NCBI GenBank assembly: GCA_964016885.1 | Contig: OZ024740.1 | Coordinates: 207,266,001 to 207,330,000, forward strand | Origin: Eledone cirrhosa | Lineage: Eukaryota | Reading direction: 5' to 3' | DNA: 64,000 nucleotides | Part shown: positions 14,001 to 14,903 of the stretch, piece after piece | Layout of the letters: each line of letters starts with the position of its first letter | How positions within the stretch are numbered: position 1 is the stretch's first letter | The notes under the pieces: generated by a model | The model's database searches: none | The model's input: the letters and a program-made list of their open reading frames with translations, nothing else | What the model was told of the DNA's origin: nothing | Translations under genes and position numbers: made by a program

Positions 14001-14903
14001 GTTACACCCCCCTCTATCGCGACATGCTCCCACATAGTCCCAACGTGCATCTAGGATTCCATTCCAGTCCCCCACTAACAGCAGGGAGCGGGAACTTCCC
14101 AGAAAAGTCTCTAGACGTTTGAAGAAGTCTGGCCGCGGTGTCCCGGATGGGGATATGCGGCCACCAGCCTGAAGGCTCCACCTTCACTACCGTTAACGTC
14201 TAGGACCACCAGTCGACCCTCCGGGTCCATATGTACCGTCTGTGTTACGAGGTCCAGGTGTTTCCGCAGCAAAATGGCAACCCCACCCCCACCTCCTGGC
14301 TGACAGAGAGATGCGTAGACCTCAAAGTCATCGAAGATGGGGGCCAGTTGTCGCTCGCTGTGGATCCTGGACTCGCAAATGGCTACTACATCCATACTGT
14401 GCGACCTGAGGTCGTTTAAGAGTTTGCCCTGTTTCCAGGGCATCCCCAGGCCGCGTACATTCACACATCCAACTCTTATATTGGCCATGTTGGTGCTGAA
14501 AAGTTAAAAGAAGAGGAAAAGAAATCACTCACCTCTTTGTCTCCTGGGGACCAGGCTGCACAATTTTCATGGGGGTGTTGGAGGGGTTGTTTGGTGGGGT
14601 GGTGGTCTCTGGCGGGGTGGGGACGGAGATGTTTGGTGGGGAGGGGGTGTCAGGTGGGGTGGAGAAACATTTCAAAAGGATGCGGTTATAGGGTTTGACG
14701 CAAGGGTTACTTACGTCGTTAGGAAATTTTTCTTTTAACTGTTTATGTGTGTCCATGGAGATCCTAATCACTTTAAGATTAGGATTCTCCGAAGAGTGTG
14801 TAAAAGTTTTCCCTTCGGTCTCCACCGAAGGGTTTTTATATATGGTGTCTGTTAAAGTTTTGTTGTTAGTATTTATGTAGGTGTAACATTTTTGTTGTGT
14901 TGA
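11050..14903 (-). mobile_element. Tx1/L1-clade LINE copy B, 5'-truncated within ORF1, with internal deletions and frameshifts
   Basis: ORF1 end at 14529-14825. ORF2 pieces at 14111-14488 (VNVRGL), 13422-14075 (GDWN, SYLDR, YSDH), 12574-13404, 12217-12531 (AYADD) and 11279-11761 (CPRC..HAFVHC). Confidence 0.95.

Follow-up and report, generated by a model that had tools for sequence, protein, structure and literature searches.

The ORF1 stop codon of a group of L1/Tx1-like LINEs in Eledone cirrhosa lies within a conserved 5' splice-site motif which, judging from its conservation and from hybrid elements joined exactly at its cut, is very probably a working splice donor. The motif was examined in a stretch of 64,000 nucleotides (the window) of this 3.0 Gb genome, where two LINEs lie in tandem on the minus strand with a GATA/GACA microsatellite between them (Table 1). 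Copy B, which starts near 14900 after a microsatellite, immediately precedes copy A and shares its orientation. Just 125 codons of its ORF2 are open, and it belongs to a high-copy family (2584 first-look candidates) of which L064 is a near-intact, full-length relative. A third related element is present as a 3' remnant downstream of copy A (window ~4400-4840, minus strand). In addition, the window holds a 176-aa ORF at 2956-3486 (minus strand), which may be a fragment of a Tc1/mariner-type transposase, and two minisatellite arrays, at 25381-28909 (unit of ~43/78 nt) and at 57586-59121 (71-nt unit, 97% matches). Head-to-tail arrays were also seen in family C1, with near-identical elements ~5.6-5.7 kb apart and up to nine in a row (G000:C3:358731380-358777466; C2:402738282-402755406; C2:50654420-50665932).

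Table 1. Coordinates of the tandem LINE copies and of their junction features in the window (a slash marks a splice cut)
Feature	Position	Strand	Remarks
Copy B, L1/Tx1-like LINE, 5'-truncated	11048..14900	-	ORF1 end, spacer, broken ORF2, 3' UTR
5' splice-site motif GAG/GTGAGT over the ORF1 stop	14527..14535	-	Exon-end AG 14534-14533; GT 14532-14531; TGA 14531-14529; cut between 14533 and 14532
37-nt inter-ORF stretch, proposed intron	14496..14532	-	Pyrimidine tract; TTAAC 14507-14503; CAG 14498-14496; AG in some lineages only
ORF2 start CCAAC ATG G	14485..14493	-	ATG 14488-14486; context kept across lineages
ORF2 stop in acceptor-like motif, pyrimidines .. CTGTAG/GT	11277..11302	-	AG 11280-11279; candidate donor partner
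Copy B 3' UTR	11048..11278	-	Three conserved hairpins; AATAAA close to the microsatellite border, on its UTR side
(GATA/GACA)n microsatellite	10760..11047		Between copies B and A; insertion target building tandem arrays
Copy A, full-length sister-family element	4940..10756	-	Ends approximate
Copy A donor motif AAG/GTAGGT at ORF1 stop	8618..8626	-	TAG 8622-8620; homologous to that of copy B
Copy A ORF2, frameshifted	8586-5157	-	Within copy A

These elements have a separate ORF1, whose translations carry a CCHC zinc knuckle (C-x2-C-x4-H-x4-C) and gave no Pfam match, lack LTRs and are frequently 5'-truncated, as L1/Tx1-type LINEs are. ORF2 combines an N-terminal APE endonuclease (PF03372), a reverse transcriptase (PF00078) and a zf-RVT domain (PF13966); its best solved relative is human L1 ORF2p (E 5e-49), and the closest relatives outside this genome (P0001-P0009) are 30-67% identical. 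The element ends inspected adjoin (TATC)n-type repeats, a target preference seen by inspection. The putative Tx1 label rests on the sequence-only reading and on this architecture. Like the Tx1 clade, represented by the microsatellite-targeting families Kibi and Koshi (PMC4494074) and by the active L1-Tx1 families of Octopus vulgaris (PMC13282606), as far as the accessible text of both descriptions goes, our elements have two ORFs, a CCHC knuckle in ORF1, the same three ORF2 domains and insertion into microsatellites. Unlike in the accessible account of Kibi and Koshi (PMC4494074), the target here is (TATC)n. The accessible parts of these descriptions (PMC4494074, PMC13282606) make no mention of a conserved donor where ORF1 ends, and the available main text on O. 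vulgaris leaves splicing unmentioned (PMC13282606).

The 3' UTR folds into three hairpins with 28 pairs, 8 of which show two-sided change (window 11048-11278 and 11 other lineages), and an extra hairpin was observed in the last codons of ORF2; together they are a candidate recognition signal for ORF2p. Modules are frequently swapped near the end of ORF1, the same ORF2 type being found with different 5' UTR/ORF1 modules and the reverse (L064, L069, L230, L358, L328, L334). Near the 5' end, the 5' UTR type of L069 and L230 (e.g. G000:C1:18044262-18044349) and L064 (7588-7521) contain an AT-rich stretch of 63-68 nt, GTRAGT..TTGTAG, with the look of an ordinary intron; its 67-nt form (GTAAGT..TTGTAG) is kept in 544 copies and lacking in none. 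Unrelated 5' UTRs with an early GTRAGT include those of copy A (window ~10659), L231 and L235.

Read directly, the letters at the junction of copy B are those described in the sequence-only reading: on the minus strand, from 14532 to 14496, AG/GTGAGT is followed by a pyrimidine tract, TTAAC and CAG/, and joining the flanks across the 37 nt gives AGC ACC AAC ATG in frame with ORF2. The ORF1 frame chosen there, which ends in MEIVQPGPQETKR before the stop, is likewise right by homology to family A copies, whose ORF1 is open over 532 codons and ends in MEVVRPEPREAER before the stop. Poly-C indels scramble the ORF1 frame in many B copies, and it is kept in 8 of 22 anchored copies; an alternative ORF1 frame in L017, which stays open until a TGA 39 nt ahead of the AUG, was dropped as the product of such an indel. 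The 37-nt motif is the spacer of the family and is not particular to the 5'-truncated, broken copy B. Among the 30 best-matching B copies the GT was kept in 29 and the AG in 29, with other spacer positions kept in 26-30, and since GT and AG are kept no better than the rest of the spacer their retention in dead B copies is uninformative on function. In the spacers of the B, E and G lineages the TAA of TTAAC lies in frame with the ORF2 AUG, 12 or 18 nt upstream of it, and it may be a read-through block rather than a branch point. In a single family A copy, L059, the ORF1 stop is mutated and ORF1 and ORF2 form one frame across the spacer.

Comparison across lineages bore out the donor half of the motif, which stands above chance, as the acceptor half does not. 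Of 20 copies sampled across lineages (19 collected by an ORF2-start pattern and one from the B-copy gap search), 17 carry GTRRGT no more than two codons from the ORF1 stop. Furthermore, positions +1, +2, +5 and +6 of the donor are invariant in 14 of 14 lineage representatives, a set that had to carry the motif and that leaves out the decayed L219, L224 and L227; at four-fold sites of early ORF2, 3 of 36 are invariant and pairwise identity is 44-79%. Scored against a donor consensus, the donor ranks first in nine and second to sixth in five of these 14 elements, each with 263-369 GT sites. It lies in phase 2 in families A, B and C, where ORF1 ends in R-stop (TAA, TGA or TAG), and in phase 1 in D, E and G, where the frame is shifted and the motif reads Gly-Lys-stop. 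The donor survives this shift of the ORF1 frame and is, on sequence grounds, a nucleotide-level signal. Among distant marine L1/Tx1 elements with both ORFs, 2 of 32 have a donor-like motif in the same register. A second donor-like motif (AG/GTAGGT, AG/GTGAGA or AG/GTAAAG) was noticed just after the ORF2 stop in several lineages (L223, L225, L226, L230, L235; window ~5156).

The joints of hybrid elements point to use of this donor. When the genome was searched for ORF1 ends that run on into sequence other than the donor, 30 hits came up, three of which pass at the exact cut into foreign sequence; one was ambiguous (L285), and the others were donor mutants, small indels and truncations. In L285 the ORF1 end is joined into ORF2, but relative to the usual form of its family the joint misses a precise splice by one base, and it was left uncounted. 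In 18 copies, a B-type ORF1 breaks off exactly at the cut and the sequence resumes with the base that follows a CAG located 23 nt upstream of the C3 donor, and past the joint these hybrids continue as C3 (92-96% like C3 and 74-81% like B1); both parents exist (7 of 18 rows of a search; 837 copies). Three of the 18 hybrids have a second joint, which links the B1 cut to the base following a CAG that lies 99 nt upstream of the first hybrid's donor, and ORF1, followed by hand through both joints in L310 and L313, ends at C3's own stop. The hybrids were retrotransposed, since the copies differ in their flanks and 5' truncations. At each joint AG alone is shared, and YAG precedes 2 (C3) and 5 (hybrid) of 148 upstream positions. 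Two independent joints link the precise cut site to a base directly behind an AG, as DNA fossils of a functional 5' splice site would, and both events bypassed the CAG that lies 37 nt from the same donor. The simplest reading takes the hybrids for splice products of read-through RNA from tandem elements such as those in the window, and it is likely that these subfamilies, which go back to two founding events and were detected with exon-end-anchored patterns, were made by splicing. Template switching at the 2-nt AG match is formally still a candidate for their origin.

On balance, we favour the view that the normal job of the donor is to remove the ORF2 start codon, which would yield an mRNA for ORF1 only and leave ORF2 to be made from unspliced RNA. 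The spliceosome would use the conserved donor at the end of ORF1, and a splice from it past the spacer would delete the ORF2 AUG and most likely all of ORF2, up to the acceptor-like stop TAG/GT; ORF2 would be translated from the unspliced RNA at its own AUG, presumably by re-initiation. Hybrids would be captured in DNA only when the ORF1 stop lands near a downstream ORF2 AUG.

The usual acceptor would most likely be the ORF2 stop, which reads TAG/G in 17 of 18 ends. By a crude score it ranks fifth of 126 conserved AG columns, and it is first of the eight sites with YAG in all 10 aligned lineages. Within individual elements its AG ranks 1-32 of 194-293 AGs, four sites internal to ORF2 score higher, and the conservation at the end of ORF2 is general rather than acceptor-specific; the hybrids, in addition, skipped their own ORF2-stop acceptor. 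With a splice to the ORF2 stop, an immediate end of ORF1 is predicted for A, B2, C3 and F; in D and E1 1-3 codons would change first, and B1, B3, B3b, C1 and C2 would gain 32-56 unrelated residues. Lineages G, E2 and E3 were ignored in these predictions (E2 and E3 coming from decayed copies), and the lineage tree, which is distorted by rearranged copies, served only for grouping. Genomic copies running from ORF1 into the 3' UTR numbered 0, against more than 1,300 unspliced junctions. None would be expected if copying needs ORF2 in cis, although a spliced ORF1-only RNA would keep the 3' hairpins.

The 37-nt stretch itself was proposed in the sequence-only reading to be an intron whose removal fuses ORF1 to ORF2. 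Splicing at this junction held up as regards the donor, which is conserved and has hybrids at its cut, and found no support as regards the short intron and the fusion. The stretch has the GT..AG ends, donor consensus and pyrimidine tract of a U2 intron, but its two ends are not conserved together: the donor is present in 17 of 20 copies, and the AG, whose conservation across the family was to support the proposal, precedes the AUG in just 3 of 20 (a fourth AG in this sample is the product of a mutated AUG). B1 (37 nt), B2 (39 nt), B4 (34 nt) and part of the old lineage G have the AG, whereas A, B3, C1-C3, D, E, F, H and I, the youngest families included, lack it; copy A has none before its ORF2 ATG at 8586. 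Genomic copies precisely lacking the 37 nt, which the same reading had suggested looking for, numbered 0 of the 480 B copies with both flanks fixed (477 had a gap of 31-45 nt and three of 25-30 nt). Likewise, a pattern for families A, B and C picked up 0 joins to ORF2 across a short gap, compared with 1,323 long-gap matches. Animal introns are typically at least 50-90 nt long (PMC13644364), and 37 nt is below this usual size. Contigs of four runs from one study gave no 37-nt or ORF2-spanning joint among the joints shown (15 of 439), which weighs neither for nor against the intron. For lineage G, one search gave 0 spliced copies and 1 unspliced copy, too few to weigh. A fusion through the AG of a conserved Arg codon of ORF2 (41-61 nt) was also rejected, as this site is mostly AAG with weak scores, is out of frame in phase-1 lineages, reads CGA in family I and has 0 copies.

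A model in which the lineages with the AG remove an intron of 32-44 nt to make an ORF1-ORF2 fusion, while a separate unspliced RNA is the template, thus appears quite unlikely to us, even though the fusion would be in frame in B1, B2 and B4 despite their 37, 39 and 34 nt, as well as in lineage G, where about 12 of 25 copies (by eye) have an AG 5 nt before the AUG and a phase-1 donor; two in-frame origins would occur by chance about once in nine. The near AG also scores first (B2) or in the top three (B1) among the AGs of its element. A fusion RNA would encode the reverse transcriptase and be copied under cis preference, so intron-less copies are expected, and none turned up in the searches above, though two joints from this donor to distant acceptors were captured; among full-length copies of human L1, ~2% are spliced forms (131 of 6,609; accessible part of PMC5860796). 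This argument is weakened by the 67-nt 5' UTR stretch, never found spliced out (0 of 544): if it is genuinely an intron, unspliced RNA must serve as the template, and the lack of intron-less copies counts for less. Against the fusion also stand the many lineages, the youngest among them, that lack the AG, and lineage G, in which the G of the AG is part of a GCCAAC start context, with CGG, TGG or CAA in sister copies, and the fact that ORF2's own AUG is kept in its CCAAC context across lineages. Confined to some lineages, the CAG at the far end of the 37 nt is probably a by-product of the pyrimidine-rich spacer and too near the donor for use. A broader scheme, in which this LINE clade would use a spliceosome switch at the ORF1 stop with three outcomes (ORF1-only mRNA, new subfamilies in which the ORF1 of one element is spliced onto the ORF2 of the next in a tandem array, and in B and G a fusion intron below 45 nt with a phase-compensated acceptor, giving a Gag-Pol-like fusion from an RNA pool apart from the template), is very unlikely as a whole, being limited by the fusion. 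Furthermore, it is scarcely probable that the CAG serves as acceptor for an upstream donor in the 5' UTR or ORF1, giving an ORF2-only mRNA like human SpORF2. The pyrimidine tract and AG are strong, the 5' UTRs contain donors and human L1 provides a precedent (accessible part of PMC2896524), but the AG is lineage-restricted and the strong donor inside the tract would compete. Such an mRNA would encode ORF2 and should be copied, yet 0 of 14 foreign-sequence hits before the acceptor of B were such joins (13 were spacer variants and one a deletion; the search passes over exon ends with T at -4).

Two further explanations concern the donor itself. Its conservation could reflect binding of U1 snRNP, which would protect or stabilise full-length RNA, for instance by masking poly(A) signals in ORF1, with occasional splicing having made the hybrids; we consider this possible but unlikely. 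Conservation of the donor without a clearly dedicated acceptor would fit such a role, as would donor-like motifs in several unrelated 5' UTRs and past the ORF2 stop in some lineages, and the intron-like 5' UTR stretch that no copy has lost. At the donor of the plant element EVD, according to the accessible part of PMC5580714, U1 blocks premature termination. In 12 of 14 elements an AATAAA or ATTAAA precedes the donor by 250-470 nt, but ORF1 is A-rich, so that upstream hexamers are expected, and they are partly homologous; moreover, ORF2 has 0-1 such hexamers in most elements, which leaves little downstream to mask, and a U1 role leaves the close association of the site with the stop codon unexplained. 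A related idea, evasion of HUSH, was rejected because that protection needs intron sequence and not a 5' splice site (accessible part of PMC8770142). Chance, with splice-like features produced by a stop codon in purine context next to a pyrimidine-rich spacer and with hybrids produced by template switches, is highly improbable. The lineages do share ancestry, and recombination near the ORF1 end is common among these families (L328, L334), but free donor positions are invariant where four-fold sites have drifted to the identities given above, the motif outlasts the frame change, and the two joints fall at the exact cut, both after CAG, at positions where YAG is as rare as stated.

Returning to an ORF1-only mRNA, the closest parallel is found in plant Ty1/Copia elements, which make a short spliced GAG RNA and in which U1 also protects full-length RNA (PMC5580714, accessible part). 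As in the Copia element EVD, a conserved donor lies at the end of the structural gene and, as we propose here, would serve an mRNA for the structural protein only, and U1 may also protect the full-length RNA. EVD, as described in the available text (PMC5580714), is an LTR element with one ORF, in which splicing is coupled to early termination and was shown on RNA; the elements studied here are two-ORF LINEs read from DNA. In human L1, SpIREs (PMC5860796, accessible part) and SpORF2 (PMC2896524, accessible part) offer a further parallel, in that a spliced LINE RNA appears to have been copied back into the genome and a LINE keeps conserved splice sites. SpIRE splices, in the accessible account (PMC5860796), start in the 5' UTR, stay within one element and are dead ends. 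Unlike these, the donor here lies at the ORF1 stop, its partner belongs to a different element and the products have spread to 18 copies, one hybrid having served as parent of the next.

In the literature searched, whose coverage stopped short of Repbase and most subscription journals, we found no donor at a LINE ORF1 stop and no LINE hybrids made by splicing. LINEs make more ORF1 than ORF2 protein, an imbalance usually ascribed to inefficient re-initiation on a single bicistronic RNA. If the donor kept at the ORF1 stop works, this clade may have another route to the excess, one known from plant Copia elements, and the hybrids suggest how LINE families swap their ORF1 modules, that is, by splicing across tandem insertions.
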